NCBI GenBank assembly: GCA_018266355.1 | Contig: JAFEAP010000023.1 | Location: 151,758 to 183,757 of the forward strand | Length of the DNA stretch: 32,000 nucleotides | Direction of reading: 5' to 3' | From: Bdellovibrionales bacterium | Lineage (GTDB): Bacteria > Bdellovibrionota > UBA1018 | Part shown: positions 3,236 to 31,832 of the stretch, piece by piece | How positions within the stretch are numbered: the stretch's first letter is position 1 | Layout of the letters: each line of letters begins with the position of its first letter | Program-made: the position numbers and the translations under genes | The notes under the pieces: generated by a model | Seen by the model: only the letters and a program-made list of their open reading frames with translations | Database searches by the model: none | What the model was told of the DNA's origin: nothing

Positions 3236-3309
3236 GTCGGGCTCGCGGTCGTCAAACCACCGTCAGTGTGTTTCGAGGATCGAAATGCGTTGGGAATCTA
3301 CCTTGTTCC

Positions 3310-3768: not shown

Positions 3769-3792
3769 AAAATTTCGGATCGCAGTGCGTGA

Positions 3793-6162: not shown

Positions 6163-6180
6163 TCCACTAAACTGTGAGTA

Positions 6181-6294
6181 TTAAAATATCCATTGGGACG
6201 AAAGAATTTCGTAGCCTTCCGCTTCGGCGGTCGCGGTGAAAGTGAAAAGACTTGCGAGACCAAGAAGTGCGAAAAGGAAGGAGCGATTCAGCAT
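6181..6294 (-). pseudogene. 37-codon ORF encoding a textbook Sec signal peptide, in the same frame as the metzincin ORF and separated from it by a single TAA
   Basis: Hand translation gives MLNRSFLFALLGLASLFTFTATAEAEGYEILSSQWIF, then TAA at 6183..6181, then YSQFSG followed by the Met at 6162. Positions 6294 and 6162 are both divisible by 3, so the frame is identical. Confidence 0.6.
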
Positions 6295-6489
6295 ACGTGC
6301 CTCGGGTAATGGGTGTATCGAAGAGTGTTGCCTGGAAATCGCCACCGAATAATGAGTCCTTCACGACACCGAGTGGGCCTTTTGGGTGACAAGACGGAAT
6401 CTTGATAGGGTGAGGCCACTTACCTCGCTTTTAGTTTTTGATAAGCTCTTCGCTACTGAGTCGGAAACGCCCGATTCGATTTTTAGCGT

Positions 6490-7407: not shown

Positions 7408-7408
7408 G

Positions 7409-13914: not shown

Positions 13915-13921
13915 ATCGGAT

Positions 13922-14704
13922 TTACGCCGCCTTCTTCAGGACGCGTTCGCCCGGGAGGAGGAACGAGTTCAGCCCTTCGCGCATCGCGACCGGGTTCACT
14001 TGGGACTTCAGCATGACCGCGCCTTCCATCATGATCCGGCGGAGGTTCATCTCCTCGCGCGTGCGCTCGGTCAGGTTCTCCGCGATCGGGAGGAAGACGA
14101 GGTTCGCGAGCGCGATCCCGTAAAGGGTGCCGATGAGGCCGACGGACATCGCCGGGCCGATCAGCGACTGGGAATTCGGTTGGCCGATCTTCTGGAGGAC
14201 GCCGATCATCCCGAGCGTCGTCGCGAGGAGGCCGAACGCCGGCGGGAAACGCCCGATCGTGCGGAACATGTTCGCCTCGAGCAGGTAACGGCCCTCGATC
14301 GTCTTGATCCGCTGTTCGAGCGTCGAACGGATCTCCTTGTCGGTGAGGACGCCGCCGGCGACGAGCGTGACGGCTTCCTTCAGGAACGGGTGCGAGATCG
14401 CGTTCGCGGCTTCCTTCAGCGTCGGCAGGCCCATCGCGGCCTTGCGATTCAATTCGAGGAGCTGCGAGATCGCGCCCTGGTAGTCGACGGCGTTCCGGCC
14501 GAGCACCCGGTTCACGAAGACTTTCGTGAGGGCGAAAATCTTGGAAAGCGGGAAACTGATCGACGTCGCGGCGAACGTCCCGCCGATGACGATCAGGATG
14601 CCGTGAAAATCGAGGAAGAACCCGAGATTGTCCGTCGTGGCGGTCATCGCGCCGTACATCACGCCGAGTCCGACGAGGAGCCCGAAGAGGGAAGAGGGAT
14701 TCAT
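13922..14704 (-). CDS. motA: Flagellar-type stator protein MotA/PomA (MotA/TolQ/ExbB channel family)
   Basis: Start taken as ATG 14704 (MNPSSLFGLLVGLGV...), forming an ATGA overlap with the upstream gene's stop. Four TM helices. Conserved prolines occur in PPAFGLLATTLGMIG and LVFLPIAENL. A charged cytoplasmic loop lies between TM2 and TM3. Confidence 0.9.
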   Translation of the reverse strand: MNPSSLFGLLVGLGVMYGAMTATTDNLGFFLDFHGILIVIGGTFAATSISFPLSKIFALTKVFVNRVLGRNAVDYQGAISQLLELNRKAAMGLPTLKEAANAISHPFLKEAVTLVAGGVLTDKEIRSTLEQRIKTIEGRYLLEANMFRTIGRFPPAFGLLATTLGMIGVLQKIGQPNSQSLIGPAMSVGLIGTLYGIALANLVFLPIAENLTERTREEMNLRRIMMEGAVMLKSQVNPVAMREGLNSFLLPGERVLKKAA

Positions 14705-15201
14705 GCGGCCTTCTTTCCGTCGCCCTTCAAGGCGACCTTCCAAAGCTGGTACTGGGTATCGACGTAGTTATCGTCGAGGCTGCGCAGGCGCTTCGCGAGC
14801 TCCTGGGTGCAGCGGCGGTAGAACTCGCACTTAGCGGTTTCGTTCTGGGCGAGGAAGCGCTGGAACACTTCCGCGGGAAGATGGAACGCCTTCACGGCGG
14901 TCAGCGCCTGGACGGTGGCCGAACGGGGAGCATCGTCGACGAGGGACATCTCGCCGAACGAATGGCCCGCCCGAAGCTGGGCGATCTCGACGAGGTCGCC
15001 CGAGGCGCGGTTCGTCTTGAAGATTCCGACCTGGCCTTCCATGACGAAGAAGAGCCCGCCCGAAGGCTCCCCTTCGATCACCATGAGGGTGAGCGCGTCG
15101 TAGGTGAGGATCTCGCCGCTCTTCAGGAACGTCTCGAGGTCCGCGTCCGAAAACGCGGCGAGGAGCTTCACTTCGCGGAGGTGGGCTGCGGTCATGTTCA
15201 T
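14701..15201 (-). CDS. Stand-alone cyclic-nucleotide-binding (CAP_ED) protein without a DNA-binding domain
   Basis: 166 aa. Beta-roll with an intact phosphate-binding cassette (FGEMSLVDDAPRSATVQA) and a C-terminal helical tail with no HTH. ATGA overlaps occur at both ends (15198-15201 and 14701-14704). Confidence 0.85.
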   Translation of the reverse strand: MNMTAAHLREVKLLAAFSDADLETFLKSGEILTYDALTLMVIEGEPSGGLFFVMEGQVGIFKTNRASGDLVEIAQLRAGHSFGEMSLVDDAPRSATVQALTAVKAFHLPAEVFQRFLAQNETAKCEFYRRCTQELAKRLRSLDDNYVDTQYQLWKVALKGDGKKAA

Positions 15202-17570: not shown

Positions 17571-18334
17571 TATTTCCCCTCGCTTTCGGAGGCGAGACCC
17601 CGGGTCGCGCGTTTGCGATCGAGGTATTTCTTCAGGGCCAAGTTCTGCGGATTCAGCCGGAGCGACTGCTGCCAGGACCGGACGGCGAGCTCGTAGCGGC
17701 CGAGGCGGTCGAGAAGCGTGCCGCGCATCTCATAGAGTTTAGGGGCGGTCGGGAAGTCGACGAGGAGGTCCTCGACCTCGAGGAGCGAGGCTTCGTAACG
17801 GCCTTCACGGTAGAGACGTTTGATGCGGTCGAGACCGGCGAGGTAGCTCTTATCCGCGTGCGGCGTCGAATCGGCGGAAGGCATCACGCCGAGGGTCTGT
17901 TCGATGTCGTTCCGTTCGCCCTCGAACTCGCCGCCGTTTTTCGGGAACGATTCGGTGATTTCGCGGTCGGCGATGACCGGCTTCTTGTTCCGGTAGGGAT
18001 CGTCGAGGTCGGCCGTGGTTTCGTCCGCGCCGGCCGCACGGGTCGGCAGCGAGACTTCGTCGAGCTTCGTCGACTGGTCGGGGAAGGTGACTTCGAAACT
18101 GCGGTCGCCCTTACGCGTGCGGAAAACGGTTCCGGTCTCGGCGGTCGCGGCCGCGCCGCCGCCGGCTTGGTACCCTTCGAAAGGATTCGTGATCGGACCG
18201 TCGGATTTTTTCTCGTTCGTGGCGAAGACCGTGCTCATCGTGGAACAAGCGGGGACGGCGGCGAGCACGACGAGCGTCGTCGTGAAGGCTCGGGTCATCT
18301 CGGCTAGGTTTTTCTCGGGTTTGCGGTTCGCCAT
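17570..18334 (-). CDS. TPR-repeat lipoprotein
   Basis: 254 aa. Leader with a lipobox-like LAAVPAC. C-terminal TPR-like repeats (YREGRYEASLLEVEDLL, LYEMRGTLLDRLGRYELAVRSWQQSLRLNP). The stop shares one nucleotide with the next gene's ATG (TAATG at 17570). Confidence 0.75.
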   Translation of the reverse strand: MANRKPEKNLAEMTRAFTTTLVVLAAVPACSTMSTVFATNEKKSDGPITNPFEGYQAGGGAAATAETGTVFRTRKGDRSFEVTFPDQSTKLDEVSLPTRAAGADETTADLDDPYRNKKPVIADREITESFPKNGGEFEGERNDIEQTLGVMPSADSTPHADKSYLAGLDRIKRLYREGRYEASLLEVEDLLVDFPTAPKLYEMRGTLLDRLGRYELAVRSWQQSLRLNPQNLALKKYLDRKRATRGLASESEGK

Positions 18335-18353: not shown

Positions 18354-19475
18354 TTAAAACAGGGCACTGATGCCCAATCCATATTCGATCCCGGAAACGC
18401 TTTTCTCGGTCCCGGTGATGAGCGTCGTCGCCTTCGGCCGGTAACCGAGCGTCGTGCTCACGGCCCAGTGCTTCGCGAGCCGCCATTCGTAGCCCGCGCG
18501 GAAGACTCCGCCGAGGTAGCCCGACGCGTACGTGCCGCCGACCCCGGTGACGATCGTACCGCGCACCTGGTTGTAGTTCTCTTCCGCGCCGATCAGGTTC
18601 CACGCGTGGACGAAGAGCATCGTCATGTTGAAGGAACCGTAGATGCGGGCGCCGGTATCCGTCGTGGTCGACTCGACCGGCGATCCGGAGAGCGTACGGA
18701 CGTCGGTGATGTAGTCGAGTTCGAACCCGACTTCCTTTTTCCGGTTGTCGTAGCGTTCGACGAGGCGGAAACCGAGGCTCAGGCAACTCGAGCGCTCCCC
18801 CGCGTCCGGTTCGTTCAGGTAAGAGATCGTCCCGCGGTATTGGAGCGTCGGGATGTATTCGTTTTGTTTCACGGAAGCTTCCATCTGGGAGAAATCGACG
18901 CCTCGACGGTACGCGGAAGCGCGGGAGGTCTCCGAATTGTAACTGCGCGACCAGACGACGCTTCCCGTAGCGGCGTCGGCCGTCGTCATCGAGAGCACCA
19001 TTCCGGTGGGTTGGAACGAGAACGCGAGATCCATGAAGTTTTCGATGCCCTGGGCCTTCGCGATGCGCGCGAGTTCGTTCGGATTCAACTCCGCGGAAGT
19101 CACGAGGATCTGGTCTTGGTTCAGCGTCGCCTTGCGTGCGCGGCACGGAAGACACTGCACGACGCGCGTCTTCGTCGTGGCGAGGATCTTTTCGGTGACG
19201 ACGAGTTCGAGGTGGTTCCGGAACGACGGCGGGATGTTCTCGCTCATCGCGATGTTCCGGATCGCGAGATCCTTCAATCCGCTCACGCTTCCGTTTTTCA
19301 GGTCGTATTCGAAATCGGAGAGGAGGTCGCCGAGGACATCGTAGAAATTCCGCGTCTCGGTTTGGGAAGCCGCGTGCGCGCGCGCCGGCATCGCCGACGT
19401 GAGTACAGCGAGGGTGGTAGCGAGTGCAGTGATGAAGCGGCGATTCTGAAGATTCATAGAGGGTCTTTCGGACAC
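18354..19475 (-). CDS. Probable outer-membrane beta-barrel protein with an N-terminal periplasmic alpha/beta domain
   Basis: 373 aa. Sec leader ...LAVLTSAMPARAHA/A. The C-terminal half has alternating-polarity strands and ends in GLGISALF (terminal aromatic, OMP-like). GTG start at 19475 with GAGGA upstream. An ATG at 19457 is an alternative start. Confidence 0.7.
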   Translation of the reverse strand: MSERPSMNLQNRRFITALATTLAVLTSAMPARAHAASQTETRNFYDVLGDLLSDFEYDLKNGSVSGLKDLAIRNIAMSENIPPSFRNHLELVVTEKILATTKTRVVQCLPCRARKATLNQDQILVTSAELNPNELARIAKAQGIENFMDLAFSFQPTGMVLSMTTADAATGSVVWSRSYNSETSRASAYRRGVDFSQMEASVKQNEYIPTLQYRGTISYLNEPDAGERSSCLSLGFRLVERYDNRKKEVGFELDYITDVRTLSGSPVESTTTDTGARIYGSFNMTMLFVHAWNLIGAEENYNQVRGTIVTGVGGTYASGYLGGVFRAGYEWRLAKHWAVSTTLGYRPKATTLITGTEKSVSGIEYGLGISALF

Positions 19476-19602: not shown

Positions 19603-20607
19603 ATGAGGACGGGTGAAGGACTCCGGAATCGCATGGGAAACCGTCTTCTCCGCCCGACATCGACGAAATTCGTCAGCGCCAGCTTCCTGGCGGCGCTCGT
19701 CGGCGGCCTTTCCTCGTGCGCGGTCCTCCAACCGAACGTGATCGAACCGACGGCCGACGCGCCCGCGCCGCCCGCCGCCGTGGAGGCGCCCGGTTACGCC
19801 GGCGTTCCGCATCCGCTCGGACTCCAAATCGGCGACGTCGCCGCGCTCTTCGCGACGCCCGGTGCGCCGAAGCGCGGAAGCGACGAGATGAAGACCTGCG
19901 CGGCCGACTACGATGCGCTCGCGAAGGCCACTAAGGCCAAGGACGAACTCAAACAAGGACTCCTCGAACTCGTCCGTAAGGAGCCGATCCGTTATCACTG
20001 GTGCTTTTACTCGAAGATCCTCGACCTCGAGGAGAAACTCCGCGGGGCCCAGATGCTCGACGATCGCCAGCGTGCGGTCGTCGAAGCGTATCGATTCCTC
20101 GCGCCGCTTTCGCGCGTTTTCTACCGCGAATTCCACGACTCCCGGTACCTGCGGTGGGCGGTCTCGTACTACCGCCGCGCGAGCGAACTCGCGTTCTATC
20201 GGCGGGTCGAGACTTCGCCGGGATTGACCCAGGAACTCGTCGGCGCGGGCGGCGACGAGACCACGCGAGGAATCACCGAGAAGGCGACGAGCGTGCTCGA
20301 AAAGTACGGGATCATCGTCCCGGAACGCCTCCAGCCCGGGCAGAGTCCCGACGAGATTCCGAAGGGTGACGCCCTTCCGAGCGACGCTTACGTGAATACC
20401 GGTTCAGGCGTGCTCGATAGCACGGCGACCGGCAGCGAAGCCAAGCCCGGCGCAGGAGCTGAAGATCCGACGGCGTCCACCGCCGCCTCTAATCCTCCTG
20501 CGGCAGCTCCGGACTCCGTCGTTCCGGACGCTCCCGCCGAAACGTCGCGCGCGCCCGCGGCTGAGAGTTCGTTTCCGGCGCTGACGAACCCGCTGCAAGG
20601 CGAATAG
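19603..20607 (+). CDS. Lipoprotein of unknown function with a Pro/Ala/Ser-rich C-terminal tail
   Basis: 334 aa. Lipobox LVGGLSSC. No recognisable domain. An alternative ATG at 19633 has a better Shine-Dalgarno (GAAGGA). Confidence 0.65.
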   Translation: MRTGEGLRNRMGNRLLRPTSTKFVSASFLAALVGGLSSCAVLQPNVIEPTADAPAPPAAVEAPGYAGVPHPLGLQIGDVAALFATPGAPKRGSDEMKTCAADYDALAKATKAKDELKQGLLELVRKEPIRYHWCFYSKILDLEEKLRGAQMLDDRQRAVVEAYRFLAPLSRVFYREFHDSRYLRWAVSYYRRASELAFYRRVETSPGLTQELVGAGGDETTRGITEKATSVLEKYGIIVPERLQPGQSPDEIPKGDALPSDAYVNTGSGVLDSTATGSEAKPGAGAEDPTASTAASNPPAAAPDSVVPDAPAETSRAPAAESSFPALTNPLQGE

Positions 20608-20785: not shown

Positions 20786-21661
20786 CTAGGCCGCGATCGA
20801 TCCGGTATCGGACTCCGCGGCGATTTCGGCGGTCTTTTCGCTGGAAATCCGCGCTCGCGCGACGGACATGCGTTCGGCGACGAGCGGATGGGGTTCGCCG
20901 CCGATCGCGCGTTGGAGCGTTTCGAGGGCCTCGAGCAACCGGCCCGGCGAGACGCCGAGGCGATCCATCGCGTGGGCGTCGGCCTCGAATTCCTGATCCC
21001 AGAGGAGGCGGCGGACGGTCATCCAGGTGAGCGCGGCCGGGATCACGCCGCTCAGGAGCGAGAGGAAACCGCCGAATTCCGTATAGCCGCTCCAATGAAG
21101 TCCGATGAGCGCGATCGAGGTGAAGAAGGAAGCCGCGACGAAAGTCGTGATGCCCGCGAACACGCGTTTCCCGAGGTGACGGCAGGCGAGGTGGGAATAC
21201 TCGTGGGCGAGCACGGCTTCGAGCGCCGGACGCGGGAGGATCCGCGCGGCGCCTTCGGCGACGAAGATCGCCGGCCGGAACGGACCGAAACCGAAGGAGA
21301 AACCGGAGACGAAGACGTTCGGGGCTCCGCCGGGCAGATCGGCATCGGCGGCGGCGAAAAGACGGATTCCGTTCCACTCGCCGATCGGGCGCGCGAAGAA
21401 CGCGTGACGAAGGACGAGGGGGCTCGCGAAGAGGCTCGCGGAAGCGCCGGCCGCGAAGCCGGCGACCGTCGAAAGGACGACGACGAGGAGCTGGAGGACC
21501 GGTGACCCTTCGTGGAGGGCGGTGCGACCGACGAGGAGCACGCCGCCGACGCATCCGGCGAAGAGGCCGATCGCGGTGATTCCGATCACGCTTCCGAAAA
21601 GAAGAACGTTCGAGAGTTGGTTCCGAAGGCGGTGATGGAAATGATCGCGAATCGCATCCAT
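20786..21661 (-). CDS. M48-family (HtpX/Ste24-like) integral-membrane zinc metalloprotease
   Basis: 291 aa, several TM helices. HExxH motif in VLAHEYSHLACRH, with a downstream third-ligand block QEFEADAHA. Confidence 0.8.
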   Translation of the reverse strand: MDAIRDHFHHRLRNQLSNVLLFGSVIGITAIGLFAGCVGGVLLVGRTALHEGSPVLQLLVVVLSTVAGFAAGASASLFASPLVLRHAFFARPIGEWNGIRLFAAADADLPGGAPNVFVSGFSFGFGPFRPAIFVAEGAARILPRPALEAVLAHEYSHLACRHLGKRVFAGITTFVAASFFTSIALIGLHWSGYTEFGGFLSLLSGVIPAALTWMTVRRLLWDQEFEADAHAMDRLGVSPGRLLEALETLQRAIGGEPHPLVAERMSVARARISSEKTAEIAAESDTGSIAA

Positions 21662-21718
21662 TCCTTTACCGGATCGGGTCGGTGGACGCGCGCCTGAACG
21701 GGCAGAGACTGCCTACCC

Positions 21719-22831
21719 CTACTCCGGGATCAGCCCGCGGGCCCAGTCTTGCGGGCGTCGGATCCGCCAGATGAACCCGTCGAGGACGTAGTGGGTCGCT
21801 TGGGGGAGCGTCAGCAGGGCGACGAGGATCGCGGTCAGCGCCGGTCCGGGCCGGAAGTCGCCGAGGAATCGGTGAAATTCGGGAAAGAGCGCGACGTGAT
21901 CGCGCCAGATCCAAACGTCCCAGAACCCCTCCTCGAGGTAGGCGAGGAGGAAGAGTACCCCGAGGTAGACGGGGACGAGGGAGAGCGTGAAGAAACGTCC
22001 GCTTCGGATTCGATACGCGCCGACGGAAAGCACGCGACGCGGGTCTCGCTCGGAGCCGGTTCGCCCGGTGATCCACACGAGTGCGAGGTAAGGCACGCCG
22101 TGGGCGACGACGTTCGTCAGCGTGAAAAGGAGATCGCTGTTGAAGACGACGATCCCGACGTTCCACGCGAGCGCCGTTCCGACGATCCAAAGCACCTTCG
22201 TCGCCGAGAATCGGCCGATGCGTCGACGGACGGAGAACTGCTCGAGGATCCAAGCCGCGCCGATCGCGAGCGCCGCGATCCGGGCGAGGAGCTCGACTGC
22301 GGGCGGAAGTCCGGTCGCGAAATCTCCTGCGATGAACCAAACGAAGTCGCGCGGGAGATGCGCATGCCAGTACACGAGGGGATAGAGGGTCGCCGCGTAG
22401 ACCGCCGCGCGGTCGAGGGGGGTGACGCCGCTTCCGTCCTTCGCTCCGTAGAGCGCGAGAAATCCGTACTGCTGCCTTACGAAGTGGAAGACCGCGACGT
22501 AAGTGAGCACGCGCCAAAAGAGCGCGGGATCGACCGAGTGGATGAGCGCGCCGACCGCCCATGCCGCGATCGGGATCCACAGGAGCGCTCCGCGGTGCTC
22601 CGCGCGTTCCTTCGGATCGAGGTAAGTCCGAAAGAGCGTCGAGTAGACGTGGGCGACGTCGACGAGCAAGACGAGGGCGAGCCATCCGTACGGGCCGAGG
22701 CTAGGGATCTCGAGCTCTCGCGCGCGCGCGTAGACTCCGACGGCGATCGCGGCGGCGGCTGTGAACCACGCGGGCCCGATGAAGAACGCGAGATCGAATC
22801 CGGGGCCGCGGATCCACCTAGACTTTTCCAC
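21719..22831 (-). CDS. Polytopic (about 9-10 TM) His-rich membrane protein, family not recognised
   Basis: 370 aa. Hydrophobic helices throughout. His residues recur near helix ends (VDVAHVYS, FHFVRQQYG, YWHAHLP, NVVAHGVPY, ATHYVLDGF). The start overlaps the upstream oxidase stop by 14 nt. Confidence 0.7.
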   Translation of the reverse strand: MEKSRWIRGPGFDLAFFIGPAWFTAAAAIAVGVYARARELEIPSLGPYGWLALVLLVDVAHVYSTLFRTYLDPKERAEHRGALLWIPIAAWAVGALIHSVDPALFWRVLTYVAVFHFVRQQYGFLALYGAKDGSGVTPLDRAAVYAATLYPLVYWHAHLPRDFVWFIAGDFATGLPPAVELLARIAALAIGAAWILEQFSVRRRIGRFSATKVLWIVGTALAWNVGIVVFNSDLLFTLTNVVAHGVPYLALVWITGRTGSERDPRRVLSVGAYRIRSGRFFTLSLVPVYLGVLFLLAYLEEGFWDVWIWRDHVALFPEFHRFLGDFRPGPALTAILVALLTLPQATHYVLDGFIWRIRRPQDWARGLIPE

Positions 22832-24524
22832 GGCGCTCCGTCCGTCCGAGATCGGAGAGCACCCGCTTCGCGGCGAGGACCCCCCGGTACTGGGCCTCCT
22901 CGAAAAGCGACATCCCCGAGATATCCGAATGCGCGAAATGCACGCGGCCGAACGAGCGCTCGAGGCCCGCGCGCTCGTCGCCCGAGAGGTATCCGGGCGC
23001 GGGCGAGATCATCCCGTGACCCCAAACCCGGTAATCGATTCGTGTCACGCGGCTTCGGATATCGGGATGCATCCCCTCGAGGTCGGCGAGGATCCGTTCG
23101 CGCCATTCGGCGGGCGTCGTCCGCGCGGCACGGAGGCGGGCCTCCTTCGCCGGCCGATCGGAAAGCGGCCAGTAATGAGTGAGGACGCTCCCTCGCGCGA
23201 TCGACTCGGTCTGGTGAGTCGCGACGACGTAGCCGAGCGAGTCCGAGTAATAACTCACGTTATCCCACGCGGTGAGCGGAGCGTGACCTTCCTCGGTCGT
23301 CCCTGGGAGATCCTCGACGGTCAAGTTCGCGACCAGCCAGGGGGCGTAAACGGCCGAGTCGATCGGCGCGCGGGCCGCTTCGGGCAGGATCCGATTCGCG
23401 ACGAACCGTGGAGTCGCGACGACGACGCTCTTCGCGCGGATCCGGGAGCGGGCCCCGTCGTTCGCGCGCAACGTATCGACGAGTACCGCGTCGCCCTCGA
23501 CCGAGATCCGGGTCGCGGCCTCGCCGGCGCGGATTTTTCCCGCACCGAGGGCCCGCAGTTTCCCGGCGAGGAATCCGTTCCCCTCCGGCCAGGCGAGAAT
23601 CGCCTGGGAATCGGCGTTTGCGGCGACGCCGCGCCGGGCGGCATGGTAATGGATGCCGGCCCAAGCCGACGTGCGCTCGAGCGGGCTGCCGAAATCGTCG
23701 CGACACGCGTAGTTCAAGTACCACCGCAGCGGCCGCGACCGATATCCCTCGCGGTCGAGCCATTCCGCCATCGACATCCGATCGAGCTCCGCGAGGTCCT
23801 TCGCGCGGAAACGGTCGCGCGACCCTTCCGCGATCGGGATCGCGAAGATCGGCCGTCCGTCGGAACCTTTCCGGTCGCCGAAGCGGCGCATTTCGTCGAA
23901 GAACCGCCGCATCTCAGCGCGTTCGTCGCCGGTGAGTCCCGCTTGGGGCACGATGCCTTCCTGGAATTTTCCCTCGATCCAGAGCCGTTCGACGGCGTCG
24001 TGGCAGATCATCGTCTCGTCGAACGTCGGGCGTCCCTTTCCGTCCCGACCGGTGATCGCGCCGATTTCCTCGAGGAATTCGTGGACGAAGCGCGATTCCG
24101 CGTTCGGGATCGGAAGATAGTGGGCCCCCCACGGATAGGCGGAAACGGCGTTCTCGCCCGACATCGAGTTTCCGCCGGTGCGGTCCTCGAGTTCGAGGAG
24201 GAGGTAATCGGAAAATCCGTTCCGGGAGAGCCACCACGCGGCGGAGAGCCCCGCGATTCCGCCGCCGAGGACGAGGACCGGGACGTCTTCGATCGCTCCG
24301 GCGGGTGCCTCGGCGGGAATCGTCCCGTCGCGCAGCCGGTGGCCGAGGGCCGCGTTCGGCGAGTGCTCCTCGATCGGGATGGCGGTGAAGCGGAGGTCGC
24401 GCAGCCAACGGTGCCAGGGAAACGCGGCGGCGGCGAGAAAGCCGCCGGCCGCGATCAGGAAGTGCCGACGGTCGAAGGATCCGGCGCGCCTCGCGCGGTC
24501 AGTGGAGGTACGCGTCCCACTCAT
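22818..24524 (-). CDS. Tat-exported FAD-dependent oxidoreductase, flavin amine-oxidase-like
   Basis: 568 aa. Twin-arginine leader SFDRRHFLIAAGGFLAAAAF. Dinucleotide fold VLVLGGGIAGLSAAWWL...ELEDRTGG. C-terminal amine-oxidase-like FAHSD...EEAQYRG. Confidence 0.85.
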   Translation of the reverse strand: MSGTRTSTDRARRAGSFDRRHFLIAAGGFLAAAAFPWHRWLRDLRFTAIPIEEHSPNAALGHRLRDGTIPAEAPAGAIEDVPVLVLGGGIAGLSAAWWLSRNGFSDYLLLELEDRTGGNSMSGENAVSAYPWGAHYLPIPNAESRFVHEFLEEIGAITGRDGKGRPTFDETMICHDAVERLWIEGKFQEGIVPQAGLTGDERAEMRRFFDEMRRFGDRKGSDGRPIFAIPIAEGSRDRFRAKDLAELDRMSMAEWLDREGYRSRPLRWYLNYACRDDFGSPLERTSAWAGIHYHAARRGVAANADSQAILAWPEGNGFLAGKLRALGAGKIRAGEAATRISVEGDAVLVDTLRANDGARSRIRAKSVVVATPRFVANRILPEAARAPIDSAVYAPWLVANLTVEDLPGTTEEGHAPLTAWDNVSYYSDSLGYVVATHQTESIARGSVLTHYWPLSDRPAKEARLRAARTTPAEWRERILADLEGMHPDIRSRVTRIDYRVWGHGMISPAPGYLSGDERAGLERSFGRVHFAHSDISGMSLFEEAQYRGVLAAKRVLSDLGRTERRGKV

Positions 24525-26064
24525 TTTCGAAGGTCCGGACGAGGATTTGATTGTTCAACCGATTTACCGAGTGCAGGACGGCGGGATCCGTCGCGCGCAT
24601 GTCGGCGGGAAACGCGAGGAGGAGCGGCGTGACCGCCGTCGAAAGGTACTGGAGTCCTTCCGGGTACTTCGTCGGGATTTTCCATCCGCCGAAATCGCCG
24701 AGGACGTATCCCCATTCCCCGAAGGACGGCACGTTCGTGTGGTACGGGTGCGTGCGGAACCCGGCCGAGGCGAGGGTGTTGTCGACGATTTGGAACGCGT
24801 TTTTCGCGACGTAAGGGGAGGTGCTCTGGATCACGACCGCGCCGCCGGGCGCGACGGCGCGCTTCAGCTCGCGGTAGAACGCGTCCGAATAGAGTTTTCC
24901 GATCGAGAAGTTCGAGGGGTCGGGAAAGTCGACGATCACGAAATCGAAGGTGTCCCGATTCGCACGCAACCAGACGAAAGCGTCGGCGTTCGTGATCGCG
25001 AGCTTCGGATTCCGGAGAGAGTCGCGGTTCAAACCCCGCAGGACGTCGTTGTTCGAAAAGAGCCGGGTCATCTCCGGATCGAGGTCGACGAGCCGGATCG
25101 ATTCGATCGAGGGGTAGCGGAAAACCTCGCGCGCGGCGAGCCCGTCGCCGCCGCCGAGGATGAGAACGCGTTTCGGATTTTCGATCCCGGCGAGTCCGAC
25201 GTGCACGAGCGCCTCGTGGTACCGGTACTCGTCGCGCGAGCTGAACTGGAGGTTCCCGTTCAGGAAGAGGCGGAGATCGTGCGGCGCCTGGGTCAGGACG
25301 ATCCGCTGGTAATGGGTCGCCTTCGAGTAGACGACCCGGTCCGGGAACGACGACGCGTCGGCGAGGCCCATGATCTGCTCGCCGAACGCGAAACCGACGA
25401 CGAGCGCGAGGAGAGCGAGGATTCCGCCGAACTGGAGCGCCGAGATCGAATGGAGCTGGCGGCGGAAGAGGTGAAGCGTCCAAAGCGCGACGACGACGTT
25501 CAAGATCCCGAAGAGGAACGCCGAGCGCACGAGGCCGAGGTGCGGGACGAGGACGAGGGGGAAGATGAGCGAGGCGAGCAGGGCGCCGATGTAGTCGACG
25601 GTGAAGACCTTCGAGACGAGGTCCCGGAACGCGTACTCCTTCCGGAGGATCCGCATGAGGAGGGGGATCTCGAGGCCGACGAGCGTGCCCGTGAGCATGA
25701 CGAGCGCGTAGAGGAGCACTCGGAAGGATCCGACGTGTTCGAACGCCGCGAAGAGGATCGCGGCCGAGAATCCTCCGACGAGTCCGACGAGGATCTCGAC
25801 GCGGATAAAGACCCGGGAAAGGTCCCGGGTGAAGAACTTCGAGGCGTACGAACCGATGCCCATCGAGAAGAGGTAGCACCCGATGATCGTCGAGAACTGG
25901 GTCACCGAATCTCCGAGGAGGTAACTCGCGAGCGCGCCCGCGATCAGTTCGTAGACGAGCCCGCACGTCGCGATCACGAAGACCGAGAGGAGCAGGACGA
26001 ACGCCGGCGAGAGTAACGTGCGTTCGGGGGCGTCGCCGTGAGCGGCGGCGCGCGCGTTAGCCAT
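24499..26064 (-). CDS. Spermidine-synthase-like aminopropyltransferase fused to an N-terminal ~7-TM domain
   Basis: 521 aa. Seven hydrophobic helices in the first ~210 aa. A SpeE core follows: VLILGGGDGLAAREVFRYPSIESIRLVDLDPEM, then FDFVIVDFPDPSNFSIGKLYSDAFY...GGAVVIQSTSP. Confidence 0.88.
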   Translation of the reverse strand: MANARAAAHGDAPERTLLSPAFVLLLSVFVIATCGLVYELIAGALASYLLGDSVTQFSTIIGCYLFSMGIGSYASKFFTRDLSRVFIRVEILVGLVGGFSAAILFAAFEHVGSFRVLLYALVMLTGTLVGLEIPLLMRILRKEYAFRDLVSKVFTVDYIGALLASLIFPLVLVPHLGLVRSAFLFGILNVVVALWTLHLFRRQLHSISALQFGGILALLALVVGFAFGEQIMGLADASSFPDRVVYSKATHYQRIVLTQAPHDLRLFLNGNLQFSSRDEYRYHEALVHVGLAGIENPKRVLILGGGDGLAAREVFRYPSIESIRLVDLDPEMTRLFSNNDVLRGLNRDSLRNPKLAITNADAFVWLRANRDTFDFVIVDFPDPSNFSIGKLYSDAFYRELKRAVAPGGAVVIQSTSPYVAKNAFQIVDNTLASAGFRTHPYHTNVPSFGEWGYVLGDFGGWKIPTKYPEGLQYLSTAVTPLLLAFPADMRATDPAVLHSVNRLNNQILVRTFENEWDAYLH

Positions 26065-26278
26065 GGACGGCGCTCGCGATGATCTGGGCGATGGCCATCG
26101 CCATCGATCCGACGACGATCGCGACCGCGATGTTCTTCTCCTGGCGGATCTCGTGCCAGAGGCTACCGGGGGTGATCTTGTCGAAGACGTAGAATCCGAC
26201 TCCGAGGGCGACGAGCCCGACGACGGAATAGACGAGGGCGGCGATGAGACTTTTCAATCCGAGGGCTTCCATGGGCAT
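26057..26278 (-). CDS. DUF350 (YjfL-like) small membrane protein
   Basis: 73 aa, two TM helices. Pattern VYSVVGLVALGVGFYVFDKITPGSLWHEI..KNIAVAIVVG is typical of DUF350. AGGAG lies about 5 nt upstream of the ATG. There is an 8-nt overlap with the next gene. Confidence 0.8.
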   Translation of the reverse strand: MPMEALGLKSLIAALVYSVVGLVALGVGFYVFDKITPGSLWHEIRQEKNIAVAIVVGSMAMAIAQIIASAVHG

Positions 26279-26283
26279 TTCTC

Positions 26284-26421
26284 CTATTTATGGTAGGCGC
26301 GGGGTCCCGTGGGACTGAACCGGCCGGTCGTGACCGAACTCCAAAGGCTGTAGCCGCGCGACGAGGCGACGGCGGCGAGGAAAATCAAAAGGGTTCCGAA
26401 GTAGAGGTAAAATTTTTGCAT
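26284..26421 (-). CDS. Possible 45-aa single-TM peptide
   Basis: Below the track's length cutoff. Hand translation gives MQKFYLYFGTLLIFLAAVASSRGYSLWSSVTTGRFSPTGPRAYHK. AAGGA lies upstream. It fits exactly into the gap between the two flanking operon genes. Confidence 0.35.
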   Translation of the reverse strand: MQKFYLYFGTLLIFLAAVASSRGYSLWSSVTTGRFSPTGPRAYHK

Positions 26422-26453
26422 AAAATCCTTAAAGCGCTCTTCGCGTTTTCCTT

Positions 26454-27833
26454 TCAGTCATCGCTACTCCAGTCGTCGCCGTCCCCGCTGTCGGACGGAG
26501 CGTAATCGCTGTTCGACCACCGCTCCGATTCGAAAGCGGACGAACGGAAAAAGGTGAAGAGCGGATAGACGCTCAGGATGAGCCAGGCGAGGAAGAAATT
26601 CGAACCGACCGAAACCCCGCGCACGCCTTTCAACCGGTAGCTCACCGGTGTCGGCGTGTTCGCCCCGTTCGCGGCGCTCGGCGTGATCACGAGGTGGTAG
26701 GTGCCGGGACCGATGCCGGTCTCGAGGTCGTCTCCGCTCGTCGATCCTTCCGACCAGCTCCCGTCCGAGTCGTATCCCGACCAGTACTCCGCGCCGACCT
26801 GCATGTCGTGGGCTTCGCCGGTGGAGTCGTTCACGAGGTCGACGTCGGCGTCGAAGTAGGAGTTGTTCAAGTCGGCGTGCAGGTCGAGTTCGAAGTTCCC
26901 GTTTCCGGTGATTTCATATGGTCCGAGACGGACGACCTTTTCCGCCGCCGTCGCGGTCGGTTCGTAATGGAGGGACTCCTCGAAGAGTTCCTGATGCGGG
27001 CTGCGGATCTTATGCAGGACGAAGAGGACGAGAATCGCGATCGTGAAGAGGAACCACGTGTCCCGTAGTCCCCGCCAGCGTTCGAGGTAGGGATTCGGTT
27101 GGTTCGGCGCGACGCCGATCGCGTAGGGAAGCGGGTTCGGCAGGCGGAACGCGGCTCCGACCGCTTCGGGAGTGAGGTAAGTGCATCTCGTCCAGATTCG
27201 TTCGGACTCGTTCGTCTCGCACGAGAGCAGATCCGGGGGATCGACGTAATCGGCGAGCTTCGACTTATCGCCCTTTCGCACCCGCCAGTAAAATTCGCCG
27301 ATGACGAAATCGACGATGCCGACGCTGTTTTGGAAATGGACGAAGGTGCGACCGCCGAGTTCGGCCCGCGGCTTCATGCCCGTCTTGAAGCTGATGCTGT
27401 CGTCGACTTTCGGGACGCCTTTCAGCGGGCTCACGTAGCTCCACTGACCGCCGGCCTCGGAGAGCCACCGGAAACCCTGGTAAGGATTGAAAAGGAGGTA
27501 TTCCTTCCAAGCGTATCCCGAGGCTTCGTCGTGTCGGCCCATCACGCCGAGGATTTCGAAAACGGATCCCTCGAATTGGCCGCGCGTTCCGATCGGGAGA
27601 TCGATCCGGCGTTTCAGGACTTGGCCTTTTTCGACGAGCTGCACGTCTTCGCGCGAAGTATCGAGGGTCGCGCCGCACGAGCCGCAGCCGACGGTGATCG
27701 TCTGGCCGACGGCCTTGATGTTCAGGGTCGCGCCGCAGCCTGGGCACTGGAAGACCCGGACGCTCGGCTTGCTCGCGGGGGGCGGCGCCGAGGCCGGAGG
27801 CGCGCCGCTTTCGGGAGGGAGATCACCAGCCAT
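26454..27833 (-). CDS. Zinc-ribbon + DUF4178 protein with two TM helices, an exported middle domain and an acidic C-terminal tail
   Basis: 459 aa. CPGCGATL...CGSCGATL ribbon. DUF4178-like block GTRGQFEGSVFEILGVMGR...YAWKEYLLFNPYQGFRWLSEAGGQW. TM helices WFLFTIAILVLFVLHKI and FFLAWLILSVYPLFTFF. Tail SDSGDGDDWSSDD. Confidence 0.8.
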   Translation of the reverse strand: MAGDLPPESGAPPASAPPPASKPSVRVFQCPGCGATLNIKAVGQTITVGCGSCGATLDTSREDVQLVEKGQVLKRRIDLPIGTRGQFEGSVFEILGVMGRHDEASGYAWKEYLLFNPYQGFRWLSEAGGQWSYVSPLKGVPKVDDSISFKTGMKPRAELGGRTFVHFQNSVGIVDFVIGEFYWRVRKGDKSKLADYVDPPDLLSCETNESERIWTRCTYLTPEAVGAAFRLPNPLPYAIGVAPNQPNPYLERWRGLRDTWFLFTIAILVLFVLHKIRSPHQELFEESLHYEPTATAAEKVVRLGPYEITGNGNFELDLHADLNNSYFDADVDLVNDSTGEAHDMQVGAEYWSGYDSDGSWSEGSTSGDDLETGIGPGTYHLVITPSAANGANTPTPVSYRLKGVRGVSVGSNFFLAWLILSVYPLFTFFRSSAFESERWSNSDYAPSDSGDGDDWSSDD

Positions 27834-28467
27834 CGAGCACCCTCAGACCGGCGAAATGAAATTCGGGGAAGTCGACCCATTCGCCGACGTAGACTTCCGG
27901 GCCGGTGTCCGGAAACCCGATCGACGCCGTGGCGACGCCGCCTTCGCCGGCGGGAACCGTGAGGTCGACGCTGAAATATTTCTTTCCGGGTCGCACGACC
28001 TTCGGGAGTTCGCCCTGGATGCCCGCGACCCAAGCCTCGCGCGCGTCTTCGACTTCGAACGTGTATTTACCGATCGCGATCGAAGTTCCCGGTCGCAGGG
28101 CTTTCGGATCGAGCTTCGGCGCCGAGGACGAGGGCACTTCCTTCAGCATCGCCCAGTTTCCCTGGGACTCCGCGAGCCAACCCGTTTCTCCGGAGTCGAA
28201 GGCGACGAACCACTCGTTCCACGTCCCCTCCGCCCAGTCGACGCGCGAACGGCCGACGACGGTGAATCCGGAGCCGCGATACTTTCCGACGGCGCCGATC
28301 TGCAGCGGAGTCAGGTCGTCGGCGAGCGTCGCGACCTTACCGAGCGATTCGAGGGTGAGGTCCTTGCGGATGAGCAGGTTCCCGCACGACCCGCACGTGG
28401 TCGTGACCCCGTCGGCCGTGCGAAACGGAACTTCTGCGCCGCAAGCCGGGCAGAGGAACCGCGCCAT
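27823..28467 (-). CDS. Soluble zinc-ribbon + DUF4178 protein
   Basis: 214 aa. CPACGAEV...CGSCGNLL ribbon, then IGAVGKYRGSGFTVVGRSRVDW..GTWNEWFVAFDSGETGWLAESQGNW. The start shares one nucleotide with the SPFH stop (TGATG). Confidence 0.8.
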   Translation of the reverse strand: MARFLCPACGAEVPFRTADGVTTTCGSCGNLLIRKDLTLESLGKVATLADDLTPLQIGAVGKYRGSGFTVVGRSRVDWAEGTWNEWFVAFDSGETGWLAESQGNWAMLKEVPSSSAPKLDPKALRPGTSIAIGKYTFEVEDAREAWVAGIQGELPKVVRPGKKYFSVDLTVPAGEGGVATASIGFPDTGPEVYVGEWVDFPEFHFAGLRVLDGW

Positions 28468-29465
28468 CAGGTGATCTTTTTCAGGAGTTCGGCTTTTTTA
28501 GCGTCGAACTCGGCTTGGGTCAGTACTCCGTTCTTCATCAGATCGTGGAGTTTCTGGATCGACGCCATCACGTCGTCCTTCGCTCCTCCTCCGGCGCCGG
28601 CGCCGAAGGATCCGCTCATCGCGGCCGCCATTTGGCTTCCCATCGCCATGCCGGCGCCGAGGCCCGCACCGACGCTCGCGTTCCCGTTCGGATTCGCCGC
28701 CGCCGTCGCGATCGAGTCCGCGGTTTGGAACTGGGTGTAGCGGCCGAGGTCGCCCACCATCCGCATGCTCGCGGCCTTGTCGAAGTAGGTCTGGAGTTCC
28801 TCGGGCAGCGTGATGCTCTGGACGAAGAACGTCTGGAGCGCGAGACCGTAATCCGCGAACGCCGGCGTGATCGCGCCGCGGAGGGTATCCGAAAACTTCT
28901 GCTGGTTCGCGGCCATGTCGATGAAGCCGACCTCGGCACCGCCGAAGTGCGAGGCCATCTGGGTCAGGATGATCGAGCGGAGCTGGCCCTCGAGTTCGGT
29001 CGCGGTGTAGGTCGGTCGCGTGCCGCCGACTTTTTGGTAGAACTTCTTCGGCTCGGCGATCTTGTACGAGAAGGCGCCGTTCGCGCGGACGCGGATCGGG
29101 CCCATCTCCTTGTCGCGGATCGTGATCGGATTCGTCGTGCCCCACTTCTGGTCGAGCTGTTCGCGGGTCGAGAAGAAGTAGACGTCGGATTTGAACGGGT
29201 TCGCGAACGCCTTGTCCCAATTCATCAGGTTCGTGAGGAGCGGGAGGGTGCGGGTGTTCAGCGTATGGAGGCCGGGGCCGAAGACGTCCGCGATCTTTCC
29301 TTCGTTCACGAAGAGGGCGAACTGAGTGTCGCGGACGGTGAGCTGGGCGCCCGTCTGGATCTCGCGATCCTGCATCGGATACTGGTTTACGAGCACGCCT
29401 TCGGGCGACTCGGGCCATTCGATGACGTCGATGAACTGCTTTTTCAGAAAATTGAAGATGCCCAT
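28467..29465 (-). CDS. SPFH/band-7 superfamily protein of the YdjI/COG4260 type with a Gly/Ala-rich linker and a C-terminal SHOCT-like helix
   Basis: 332 aa. N-terminus MGIFNFLKKQFIDVIEW...GAQLTVRDTQFALFVNEGKIADVFGPG is typical of COG4260 SPFH proteins. The tail IQKLHDLMKNGVLTQAEFDAKKAELLKKI has the SHOCT pattern. Confidence 0.88.
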   Translation of the reverse strand: MGIFNFLKKQFIDVIEWPESPEGVLVNQYPMQDREIQTGAQLTVRDTQFALFVNEGKIADVFGPGLHTLNTRTLPLLTNLMNWDKAFANPFKSDVYFFSTREQLDQKWGTTNPITIRDKEMGPIRVRANGAFSYKIAEPKKFYQKVGGTRPTYTATELEGQLRSIILTQMASHFGGAEVGFIDMAANQQKFSDTLRGAITPAFADYGLALQTFFVQSITLPEELQTYFDKAASMRMVGDLGRYTQFQTADSIATAAANPNGNASVGAGLGAGMAMGSQMAAAMSGSFGAGAGGGAKDDVMASIQKLHDLMKNGVLTQAEFDAKKAELLKKIT

Positions 29466-29489
29466 GACTCGGTTTTCCTCTCGGGGTGA

Positions 29490-30998: not shown

Positions 30999-31832
30999 AT
31001 GGGTCTTCGAATTAATACGAACGTGCAGTCTCTCGCAGCTCAACGTTCCTTGAGCGTGAACGGCAACAACCAGAAGCTGAATCTTGAACACTTGTCTTCG
31101 GGTTCGCGGATCGTCCGCGCGGCGGACGACGCCGCCGGCCTCGCGATTTCCGAAAAGATGAAGTCGCACATCCGGTCCCTCGGCCAGGATATGCGCAACG
31201 CCAACGACGGGATCTCGATGATCCAAACGGCTGAAGGCGCGATGAACGAGACGGGGAACATCCTCACTCGTTTCCGCGAGCTTTCGATCCAAGCCGCTTC
31301 GGACACCATCGGCGATACCGAACGCGGTTTCATCGATAAGGAAGTCCAACAGCTCGGCGCGGAAATCGACCGCATCGCGAAATCGACCGAATACAACGGT
31401 CGCAAACTTCTCTCCGGAGAAGGCGATATGCTCGAAATCCAAGTCGGTCTGAAGAACGACAAGGTTCTCGACCGTTTCCAATACGACGTGGCGAAGGTGA
31501 ATTCGACCGCGGAAGCCCTCGGCGTGGCCGGTATGACCGTCGCGACGAAGGAAGAAGCGCAGAACAACCTCGACAAGATCGACAAGGCGATCACGACGCT
31601 TTCCGGAAACCGCGCCGAAATGGGCGCTCTCCAGAATCGTCTCCAGTCTTCGATCAACAACATGCAGATCTATAACGAGAACCTCTCGGCTGGTAACAGC
31701 CGGATTCGCGATATCGATGTTGCGTCGGAAACTGCGGAACTCACGAAGAACAACATCCTCACCCAAGCAACGACGTCGGTCCTCGGTCAAGCGAACCAGA
31801 ACTCGATGCTCGCCCTGAAGCTCCTCGGATAA
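30999..31832 (+). CDS. fliC: Flagellin (short form, D0/D1 only)
   Basis: 277 aa. N-terminus MGLRINTNVQSLAAQRSLS...LSSGSRIVRAADDAAGLAISEKM...NANDGISMIQTAEGAM. C-terminus RAEMGALQNRLQSSINNM...IRDIDVASETAELTKNNILTQATTSVLGQANQNSMLALKLLG. GGAGG Shine-Dalgarno upstream. Confidence 0.93.
   Translation: MGLRINTNVQSLAAQRSLSVNGNNQKLNLEHLSSGSRIVRAADDAAGLAISEKMKSHIRSLGQDMRNANDGISMIQTAEGAMNETGNILTRFRELSIQAASDTIGDTERGFIDKEVQQLGAEIDRIAKSTEYNGRKLLSGEGDMLEIQVGLKNDKVLDRFQYDVAKVNSTAEALGVAGMTVATKEEAQNNLDKIDKAITTLSGNRAEMGALQNRLQSSINNMQIYNENLSAGNSRIRDIDVASETAELTKNNILTQATTSVLGQANQNSMLALKLLG

Follow-up and report, generated by a model that had tools for sequence, protein, structure and literature searches.

A conserved gene cassette joining a membrane-fused SpeE-like aminopropyltransferase, a predicted exported amine oxidase and a lysine-terminal mini-peptide in a Bdellovibrionales bacterium and other phyla

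A 32,000-nucleotide (nt) stretch of DNA from the metagenome-assembled genome of a Bdellovibrionales bacterium (assembly GCA_018266355.1, contig JAFEAP010000023.1, positions 151,758 to 183,757 of the forward strand; hereafter the window) carries nine closely spaced genes on its minus strand, among them a spermidine-synthase-like (SpeE-like) aminopropyltransferase fused to a membrane domain. The locus bears on a question that is already present in the literature: what do membrane-fused SpeE-like enzymes with a dedicated S-adenosylmethionine (AdoMet) decarboxylase aminopropylate, if not polyamines? The C-terminal lysine of a mini-peptide encoded in the same block is a specific candidate, and this peptide is the sharpest conserved small feature of the cassette. 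Our leading, and still tentative, reading is that the cassette may be an envelope module for aminopropyl transfer and amine oxidation, in which the peptide lysine is the foremost candidate acceptor. The nine open reading frames (ORFs) are given below in the order of the gene block, with lengths in amino acids (aa) and transmembrane helices abbreviated as TM.

28467–29465, minus strand: SPFH protein, 332 aa, with a Band_7_1 domain, a Gly/Ala/Met-rich linker and a C-terminal SHOCT domain; facultative first gene.
27823–28467, minus strand: short Zn-ribbon and DUF4178 protein, 214 aa; DUF4178 at 5.9e-15, N-terminal CxxC...CxxC.
26454–27833, minus strand: long Zn-ribbon and DUF4178 paralog, 459 aa; DUF4178 at 6.5e-18, two TM, acidic tail.
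26284–26421, minus strand: mini-ORF, 45 aa, with a hydrophobic N-terminal helix, an RGY motif and a flexible basic Gly/Ser/Pro tail ending in ...GPRAYHK-stop.
26057–26278, minus strand: DUF350 membrane protein, 73 aa; PF03994 at 6.1e-16, profile positions 3–66 of 133.
24499–26064, minus strand: 7-TM domain joined to an aminopropyltransferase dependent on decarboxylated AdoMet (dcAdoMet), SpeE-like, 521 aa; NF002956, Spermine_synth.
22818–24524, minus strand: amine oxidase/dehydrogenase using flavin adenine dinucleotide (FAD), 568 aa, with a signal of the twin-arginine translocation (Tat) type; Pfam Amino_oxidase and NAD_binding_8.
21719–22831, minus strand: polytopic protein without a family, about 10 TM, 370 aa; accessory, always after the oxidase gene.
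20786–21661, minus strand: M48 (HtpX-like) membrane metalloprotease, 291 aa; Peptidase_M48 at 3.5e-12, HEYSH motif.

Each of these ORFs, which together span 20786–29465 in the ORF listing of the window, had a GC content at third codon positions (GC3) of 0.80–0.88, a coding signature in sequence that is 64% GC. The SPFH and short DUF4178 genes share a TGATG with a 1-nt stop/start overlap at 28467, and the two DUF4178 genes overlap by 11 nt (27823–27833). The mini-ORF lies 32 nt (26422–26453) after the long DUF4178 gene and 5 nt (26279–26283) before the DUF350 gene. Overlaps of 8 nt (26057–26064), 26 nt (24499–24524) and 14 nt (22818–22831) then link the DUF350, aminopropyltransferase, oxidase and polytopic genes in turn, and 57 nt (21662–21718) precede the M48 gene. 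An earlier note on this DNA had described a tightly packed single block of nine genes with these junctions and domains; ORF coordinates, Pfam and NCBIfam confirmed the packing, every junction and the domain assignments.

The conservation of the block was surveyed in two sets of loci, one of 82 found with the polytopic protein as seed and one of 80 found with the SpeE-like enzyme as seed. The first set came from an alignment-seeded scan of 185,579 species genomes, which gave at least 581 confirmed relatives, the best 80 loci being surveyed; the second came from tblastn on plasmids together with a metagenome scan in which a distant variant was placed first. Partner counts cover only loci with enough upstream sequence, and the same order and the same strand were required. 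Across both sets, more than 140 loci from many phyla repeated the same gene order, an arrangement far from chance. Obscuribacterales/Melainabacteria, Bdellovibrionota, Leptospiraceae, Bacteroidota, Alpha- and Betaproteobacteria, Myxococcales, Verrucomicrobia, Acidobacteria, Armatimonadota and Elusimicrobia were among the taxa of the best 80 polytopic-seeded loci. The order was also found in Gemmatimonadota, and the cultured Bacteroidota Sabulibacter ruber and Adhaeribacter soli carry the cassette. The polytopic-seeded loci held as partners the amine oxidase (70/74), the aminopropyltransferase (65/70), DUF350 (62/70), the long DUF4178 protein (62/65) and the short one (56/61). The SPFH gene lay upstream in 38 of 58 evaluable loci of this set and in many SpeE-seeded loci; it was missing from all sampled Bacteroidota and Leptospiraceae. 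Only two of the 82 loci, L006 and L007, which are the closest relatives, had the M48 gene downstream.

De novo clustering of flanking ORFs revealed one further recurrent neighbour, a class 1 AdoMet decarboxylase with an ESHxxxHTWPE processing site. A decarboxylase gene lay within 10 kb in 34 of the 82 loci, two class 2 enzymes included, and directly adjoined the cassette in most SpeE-seeded loci; since it is present in these 34 relatives and not in the window, it is facultative in the family. The commonest SpeE-seeded layout was SPFH–AdoMet decarboxylase–DUF4178–DUF4178–mini-ORF–DUF350–aminopropyltransferase–oxidase, without the polytopic protein, which occurred in only two loci of that set, and some variants there also had no oxidase. 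These layouts limit the core to the two Zn-ribbon DUF4178 proteins, the mini-ORF, DUF350 and the 7-TM aminopropyltransferase. The oxidase, SPFH protein, AdoMet decarboxylase and polytopic protein are accessories, and the window represents a polytopic-containing sub-variant. Of the nine genes that the earlier note had treated as one operon, the core recurred beyond chance in both seed sets. The full nine-gene set is not one conserved unit, given the two loci with M48, the 38 of 58 with SPFH and the two SpeE-seeded loci with the polytopic protein. That note also overlooked the lysine terminus of the mini-peptide and the AdoMet decarboxylase as the commonest extra neighbour.

Rearranged versions were observed as well. 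The Ralstonia solanacearum megaplasmids and Burkholderia have the system split into two divergent units. At R. solanacearum CP052083.1, 1557256–1569142, one strand carries DUF350, an SPFH-like gene, a 482-aa DUF4178 gene, a 61-aa peptide with a GGHK end and speD; the other carries a five-gene ABC transporter followed by the 7-TM aminopropyltransferase and the oxidase. Matches to this split version were obtained from about 120 Ralstonia megaplasmids. A degenerate copy was seen in locus L062 (2504–6522): a truncated long DUF4178 gene continues directly into an oxidase gene that is itself shortened, and neither DUF350 nor the aminopropyltransferase is present, which looks like an internal deletion.

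The clearest signal of the survey came from the mini-ORF, which in the window has an AAGGA Shine-Dalgarno-like sequence upstream. An ORF ending in His-Lys-stop lay between the long DUF4178 and enzyme genes in all 63 polytopic-seeded loci holding both; of the ORF segments of those loci as a whole, 0.3% have this ending. A Lys-terminal mini-ORF was found in 61 of 62 SpeE-seeded loci, mostly ending in ...HHYTGGK, ...RGK, ...GHK or ...RVK, and the terminus was also kept in the Novosphingobium, Gemmatirosa, Tritonibacter, Burkholderia and Ralstonia versions (5/5). Among 118 distinct mini-ORF sequences the lysine codon was AAA in 71 and AAG in 47, all three stop codons were used, and position −2 was His (CAC 45, CAT 21) or Gly (four codons). 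Common to the peptides is a hydrophobic head, about 18 residues long and closed by a G-(W/Y) motif; behind it comes a flexible basic tail of some 25 residues, with much Gly, Ser, Pro and His. The sub-variant without the polytopic protein (L107–L169) has the consensus ...(Y/F)RGWS...NVPKS(V/I)RDNPG(S/A)YRS(V/H)Y..(H)HYTGGK, which differs from the ...TGPxxYHK type of the window, the Lys end being common to both. No Pfam or NCBIfam family matched the mini-ORF. The peptide is retained in variants without the oxidase, and therefore it tracks the aminopropyltransferase.

The possibility that the terminal Lys codon is a by-product of a Shine-Dalgarno sequence for the following gene was rejected. The gap to the next gene varies from 5 to 27 nt, the next gene may be DUF350 or speD, and the Lys codons are synonymous, so that conservation acts on the protein and not on a ribosome-binding site.

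The aminopropyltransferase of the window matched the NCBIfam equivalog NF002956, polyamine aminopropyltransferase, with 657 bits against a cutoff of 472 (2.2e-197), a model that was built on the same uncharacterised TM-fused family, and Pfam Spermine_synth (PF01564) at 3.8e-38. Its 7-TM region forms the N-terminal half of the fusion. The motifs DEYRYHE, GGGDG, VDLD, DFPDP and QSTSP were invariant in 66 homologs, and all dcAdoMet-binding and catalytic motifs of the SpeE family (GGGDG, the acidic ribose ligand, DxxDP, YHE) are kept. The acidic residues E39, D52, E90, E132 and D157, in or next to the TM helices, were invariant in the same 66 homologs, which would suit a path for a cationic ligand. 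The mean Lys plus Arg count of successive loops across 66 SpeE homologs was 1.3 (N-terminus), 0, 2.2, 0.08, 3.9, about 0 and 2.3. By the positive-inside rule, this pattern suggests a cytoplasmic N-terminus, seven TM helices and a catalytic domain that is predicted to lie outside the membrane. The window enzyme shares with canonical SpeE the catalytic fold and the dcAdoMet- and amine-binding motifs, and an AdoMet decarboxylase, the counterpart of SpeD, is often adjacent in relatives. However, it differs from canonical SpeE in its fusion to a conserved 7-TM domain with invariant acidic residues, in its predicted extracytoplasmic catalytic domain and in being embedded in a fixed set of membrane proteins. 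The neighbouring DUF350 protein corresponds to one 2-TM half of the YjfL-type repeat and gave a weak phmmer match to Escherichia coli YjfL.

The oxidase has an FDRRHFL twin-arginine motif at its N-terminus, with the Tat signal region SFDRRHFLIAAGGFLAAAAF; the twin-arginine motif, a moderately hydrophobic h-region and a cofactor-containing mature domain, the features of predicted Tat export, are all present. An (S/T)RRxFLK-type N-terminus is conserved across homologs, an RRxFL-type motif being found in 30 of 71. Obscuribacterales have a degenerate SRxxFLK, many Bacteroidota have a lipobox Cys after the h-region, and PF10518 (TAT_signal) was recorded on one homolog (P0303). These Tat and lipobox signals suggest that the oxidase is very probably periplasmic. 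The AlphaFold2 (AF2) model had a predicted local distance difference test score (pLDDT) of 86.6. Its best PDB folds were bacterial monoamine oxidase (MAO), including a putrescine complex, MAO A/B, putrescine oxidase, cyclohexylamine oxidase and spermidine dehydrogenase (SpdH), with E values of 1e-23 to 1e-20, whole-chain TM-scores of 0.6–0.74 and 15–20% identity. The FAD-binding motif is present, and it was all that sequence searches against the PDB matched. The modelled fold thus supports an amine oxidase and does not specifically point to a polyamine oxidase over a primary-amine oxidase. Unlike MAO, putrescine oxidase and SpdH, the window protein has a conserved N-terminal GHxLR extension together with the Tat/lipoprotein export signals.

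The polytopic protein had more than 4,000 homologs, forming 1,009 clusters at 50% identity, and no Pfam annotation on any of them. Residues D58, H61, H116, R119, Q120, Q121, H156, D170, N240, H244, E300, E301, H347 and D351 were invariant. On the AF2 model, which has a pLDDT of 89.6 and about ten helices, and from loop charges, most of these are predicted to lie in the outer half of the membrane. A Foldseek search of this model against the PDB gave no match (best E 0.34, TM-score 0.2), the profile gave 0 matches against the PDB, and Pfam on 37 members returned only noise. In approximately 95% of its own loci, the protein adjoins the rest of the cassette. Its start overlaps the end of the oxidase gene in the window and in relatives, which suggests a stoichiometric partner of the oxidase, for example a metal-dependent enzyme or an electron acceptor. 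Three loci (L043, L056, L084) hold the polytopic gene alone, with 10 kb of upstream sequence free of any cassette gene; the neighbours there were peroxiredoxins, a GyrI-like protein, DUF72 and a leucine-rich-repeat protein, with no common theme.

In the long DUF4178 protein, two TM helices enclose a conserved stretch of about 130 aa that is predicted to form a periplasmic domain and carries EYY-G-D-G--WSEGS; four Zn-ribbon Cys, W-EYLLFNP-GFR and GEFYW are invariant in the alignment, and the Zn-ribbon/DUF4178 part is on the predicted cytoplasmic side. The short paralog is presumably soluble and cytoplasmic. Searched against the PDB, the DUF4178 profile matched only a Zn-ribbon, weakly (LysW), and no solved relative. 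The SPFH protein (Band_7_1, PF13421, at 5.8e-70; SHOCT, PF09851, at 4.8e-07) is predicted to be cytosolic or peripheral.

The leading reading would join these parts as follows. Cytoplasmic dcAdoMet would travel through the conserved acidic 7-TM domain, or alongside it, to reach the catalytic part of the enzyme, with the AdoMet decarboxylase, where present, supplying the aminopropyl donor, and the aminopropyl group would be passed to an amine at the outer face of the inner membrane. The candidate acceptor is the epsilon-amine of the C-terminal lysine of the co-encoded peptide, which would thereby become a membrane-tethered polyamine-like (aminopropyl-cadaverine-like) tail. The enzyme would then be a counterpart of the E. 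coli peptide–spermidine ligase YjfC, arriving at a product of the same kind along another route. The exported oxidase and its polytopic membrane partner may oxidise, remove or turn over the resulting or a related amine, and the cytoplasmic Zn-ribbon/DUF4178 and SPFH–SHOCT proteins may scaffold or regulate the complex, as Bacillus subtilis YdjG/H recruit YdjI. The physiological output is probably homeostasis of envelope charge or stability. The peptide as acceptor is suggested by its Lys end, kept in both seed sets and in the five further versions while codons and stops vary. Aminopropyl chemistry is suggested by the NF002956 match, the invariant catalytic motifs and the AdoMet decarboxylase neighbours. 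An extracytoplasmic site is consistent with the loop charges of the SpeE-like enzyme, the Tat/lipobox signals of the oxidase and the polar residues in the outer half of the polytopic protein.

Operons of this kind have been flagged computationally. Ravi et al. (2024, mSystems, PMC11237479) described PspA–CesT/Tir operons with a 7-TM SpeE-like protein, DUF350, a lipoprotein with a low-complexity tail and DUF4178, as well as PspA-free variants, one of which has Band-7 and SHOCT, AdoMet decarboxylase and polyamine oxidase. They suggested that such systems monitor polyamines or perform “aminopropylation of other substrates,” citing Li et al. (2019). In the PspA-free variant, Band-7 with low-complexity/“2TM” and SHOCT replaces the CesT/Tir–PspA dyad (Ravi et al., 2024), and the window likewise has Band_7_1 and SHOCT. 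DUF350, DUF4178, the 7-TM SpeE-like protein and “polyamine oxidase” of that variant are also all found in the window block; the AdoMet decarboxylase listed for it was not matched in the 32-kb window. That account is one comparative-genomics sentence, in which neither the polytopic protein nor M48 nor a mini-ORF with a lysine end appears. The Shewanella oneidensis operon SO_3762–3767 (Ravi et al., 2024, Table S3), with the order lipoprotein (Ctha_1186 plus low complexity)–DUF350–7TM-SpeE–CesT/Tir–PspA–DUF4178–RHH, shares with the window the triad of a small low-complexity exported protein, DUF350 and 7TM-SpeE, plus DUF4178. It differs by having PspA, CesT/Tir and one DUF4178 gene, and no oxidase, SPFH or polytopic protein. 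The kinship to the DUF350/polyamine-enzyme neighbourhoods of Psp surveys, which the earlier note had pointed to, is therefore borne out. Its statement that it knew of no experimental characterisation of such a cluster also agrees with our literature search, which found no experimental study of the cassette and no report of protein-lysine aminopropylation; DUF4178 itself was mentioned in a single paper among those searched. What is new here is the Lys terminus, the charge-based prediction that the catalytic domain is outside, and the Tat/lipoprotein signals of the oxidase.

The E. coli yjfIJKLMC locus is a further relative in organization. Features that parallel those of the window are DUF350 (YjfL), adjoined by a small envelope protein whose C-terminal tail is rich in Gly and Ser (YjfM), an enzyme that conjugates polyamines, and a beta-rich DUF protein. 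The yjf locus, however, has the ATP-grasp enzyme YjfC and not an aminopropyltransferase, and includes PspA (YjfJ) and YjfI. The RefSeq name of YjfC, peptide–spermidine ligase, follows Pederick et al. (2023, as cited in PMC11762307), and that citing account gives its physiological substrate as unknown. Homology between YjfK (DUF2491) and DUF4178 was not detected by hhalign with a single-sequence template (probability 0.4%). YjfM (DUF1190; 7388–8026 in locus L086), encoded between YjfL and YjfC, has a very basic 38-aa N-terminus and a lipobox-like LKGC. Its Gly/Ser/Arg/Tyr-rich C-terminal tail resembles the mini-peptide tails in composition and ends in ...ARGHWGG, not in Lys.

Several points weigh against the leading reading. 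YjfM looks exported whereas YjfC must be cytoplasmic, which weakens the yjf analogy. The extracytoplasmic topology of the aminopropyltransferase is a prediction from a single source, the positive-inside rule, and a catalytic domain in the periplasm would need export of dcAdoMet, for which we know of no precedent. The mini-peptide tail is net basic (K+R+H 5.4 against D+E 1.5); this would favour a cytoplasmic tail, and the orientation is ambiguous. Both Asp of DxxDP, the pair that binds free diamine in canonical spermidine synthases, are retained, which favours a free diamine; judged by SpeE structures, a C-terminal lysine, which also bears a carboxylate, resembles the diamine substrate only imperfectly. 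In Ralstonia, the SpeE–oxidase pair stands apart from the rest of the system. Moreover, every step of the scheme, the acceptor included, is one that we infer from sequence. A more specific form of the scheme, in which a peptide-templated machine would pass dcAdoMet outward through the 7-TM domain and build a polyamine-like chain on the peptide Lys, with the oxidase and a metal-site enzyme editing or removing the chain, is rather unlikely.

The chief rival is nearly as likely, although we regard it as doubtful as it stands. According to it, a free diamine is the substrate from which the enzyme makes spermidine, norspermidine or aminopropylcadaverine; released or exported via the 7-TM domain, this product would coat the envelope or make it more stable. 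The oxidase, itself exported, would trim or recycle the product, and the lysine-tailed peptide, DUF350 and DUF4178 would be structural or regulatory subunits. The above-cutoff equivalog match, the invariance of both DxxDP Asp and the adjoining AdoMet decarboxylase are in keeping with this route, as are the putrescine oxidase, putrescine-bound bacterial MAO and SpdH among the closest folds of the oxidase. The dedicated SpeD/SpeE-like genes PA4773–4774 are said, in work of Johnson from 2012, to give surface spermidine in Pseudomonas aeruginosa. It is also reported that pairs of aminopropyltransferase and polyamine oxidase can remodel polyamines (PMC11531321). However, free-polyamine synthesis leaves unexplained why a C-terminal-Lys peptide is retained in about 125 of 127 loci and why the DUF4178 pair is obligate, and the equivalog model derives from the uncharacterised family itself. 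In addition, Li and colleagues reportedly concluded in 2019 that clusters of AdoMet decarboxylase and membrane SpeE have a polyamine-independent role and are not for polyamine synthesis.

The explanation offered in the earlier note was a nine-gene stress system resembling Psp, with an SPFH microdomain scaffold, locally made polyamine and M48 as a quality-control protease; we consider it distinctly unlikely. Related operons do hold PspA and a CesT/Tir-like protein (Ravi et al., 2024), and in B. subtilis the SPFH protein YdjI, recruited by membrane partners, links PspA to the membrane (PMC8581546; bioRxiv 10.64898/2026.02.06.704340). The Zn-ribbon membrane protein after the SPFH gene in the window is an echo of YdjG. 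The pspA-ydjGHI (samGHI) system thus shares with the window a cytosolic SPFH protein with Zn-ribbon membrane partners (PMC8581546; Ravi et al., 2024). It differs in working with PspA, in the Zn-ribbon and not SHOCT end of YdjI, and in having no polyamine enzymes, DUF350 or DUF4178. As the earlier note had observed, PspA is missing from the locus: no window ORF of at least 30 aa matched E. coli YjfJ, which belongs to the PspA family, or AdoMet decarboxylase queries (phmmer, 32 kb), and flanking ORFs scanned with Pfam gave no PspA match. PspA was likewise found in 0 of the 82 polytopic-seeded loci, with the limited sensitivity of a single-sequence YjfJ query in phmmer, and YjfC-like genes were found in 0 of 82. 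Judged by PspA/IM30, for which these searches gave no match in the window or in the 82 loci, the locus does not qualify as a Psp system. The SPFH gene is missing in one third of loci. No terminator-like site was found within the 57-nt gap between the polytopic and M48 genes, and M48 is probably co-transcribed with the cassette in the window. Nevertheless, with its linkage confined to two loci, M48 is a lineage-specific neighbour and not a component of the conserved cassette, which contradicts the quality-control part of this explanation.

The peptide may alternatively be read as a tether similar to Lpp: a membrane-anchored peptide whose C-terminal lysine is cross-linked to peptidoglycan, with the enzymes modifying the wall or the link. 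Braun's lipoprotein ends in ...YRK, and the mini-peptides present a C-terminal Tyr-His-Lys or Gly-Gly-Lys on a flexible tail behind a hydrophobic anchor. A few versions have lipobox-like motifs; however, these are 3 of 66, flank clustering revealed no recurrent L,D-transpeptidase, and the strict linkage to aminopropyltransferase and AdoMet decarboxylase would go unexplained, so we hold a tether to be very unlikely. Scarcely credible is a ribosomally synthesised and post-translationally modified peptide, its C-terminus tailored by the aminopropyltransferase, oxidase and polytopic enzyme before release (in the window through M48) as an antimicrobial or a signal. In its favour, the small ORF, conserved at its C-terminus, does adjoin tailoring-type enzymes, and microcin C is a precedent for peptide-conjugate aminopropylation. 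Against it, flank clustering gave no recurrent exporter, immunity or leader-peptidase gene, M48 is not conserved, fixed synteny over more than 10 phyla is more typical of housekeeping envelope functions, and the hydrophobic head points to a peptide that remains membrane-bound.

The block ends on one side at a divergent gene for the MeaB GTPase (29490, plus strand) and on the other at a convergent ORF without a known family (19603–20607, plus strand). Only 24 nt (29466–29489) separate the starts of the SPFH gene and the MeaB ORF. Because the Pfam match of MeaB begins at residue 70 of the annotated ORF, translation of MeaB probably starts later than annotated, and the stretch annotated as its N-terminus probably covers the promoter of the cassette. 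A promoter scan found no sigma-70-like sites, terminator-like sites occurred at the background rate, and an Rfam scan of the window gave no matches. An anti-phage defence system was considered and rejected, PADLOC having returned only a generic mad2 match and a weak FAD-motif match; the former, mads_2 against the aminopropyltransferase domain (24499–26064) at 7e-18, looks like generic similarity of the class I methyltransferase fold. Directly downstream of the cassette, the convergent ORF (334 aa) and a second ORF at 18354–19475 (minus strand, 373 aa) both have coding GC3 and no Pfam family.

Elsewhere in the window, a minus-strand run at 13123–18334 contains MotB-like (13123–13914), MotA/ExbB-like (13922–14743) and cyclic-nucleotide (cNMP)-binding (14701–15201) genes, followed by genes for a 790-aa protein with C-terminal FliG_M and FliG_C (15198–17570) and for a TPR protein (17570–18334). 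A FliG-domain protein of this length beside a cyclic-nucleotide sensor is unusual. A flagellin gene is located at 30999–31832. Positions 3000–6500 form a low-GC island (47–50% against approximately 64% elsewhere) that may have been horizontally acquired. It includes a 789-aa ORF (3793–6162, minus strand) whose only Pfam matches are C-terminal Big_9 and cadherin-like domains. A gene of glycoside hydrolase family 46 (GH46, the chitosanase family; 2363–3235) adjoins a GNAT acetyltransferase gene (1869–2354).

Well over 500 of the sampled genomes and metagenome contigs, belonging to more than 10 phyla, contain the cassette, and neither its polytopic protein family nor its lysine-terminal peptide family has any database model. 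Tractable carriers include the Ralstonia solanacearum megaplasmid, Novosphingobium, Burkholderia, Adhaeribacter and Sabulibacter. If a polyamine-like chain is indeed built on the peptide lysine, this would be the first bacterial protein-lysine aminopropylation system. It would also reveal which acceptor underlies the “polyamine-independent role of AdoMet decarboxylase” and would represent a functional convergence with YjfC. An outward-facing catalytic domain together with an exported oxidase, if confirmed, would place AdoMet-derived chemistry in the periplasm, a rare arrangement. Should the ordinary reading, in which free polyamines are made, be true, the cassette would still be a module devoted to polyamines at the envelope, with a bearing on membrane stress and on how cationic antimicrobials are tolerated.

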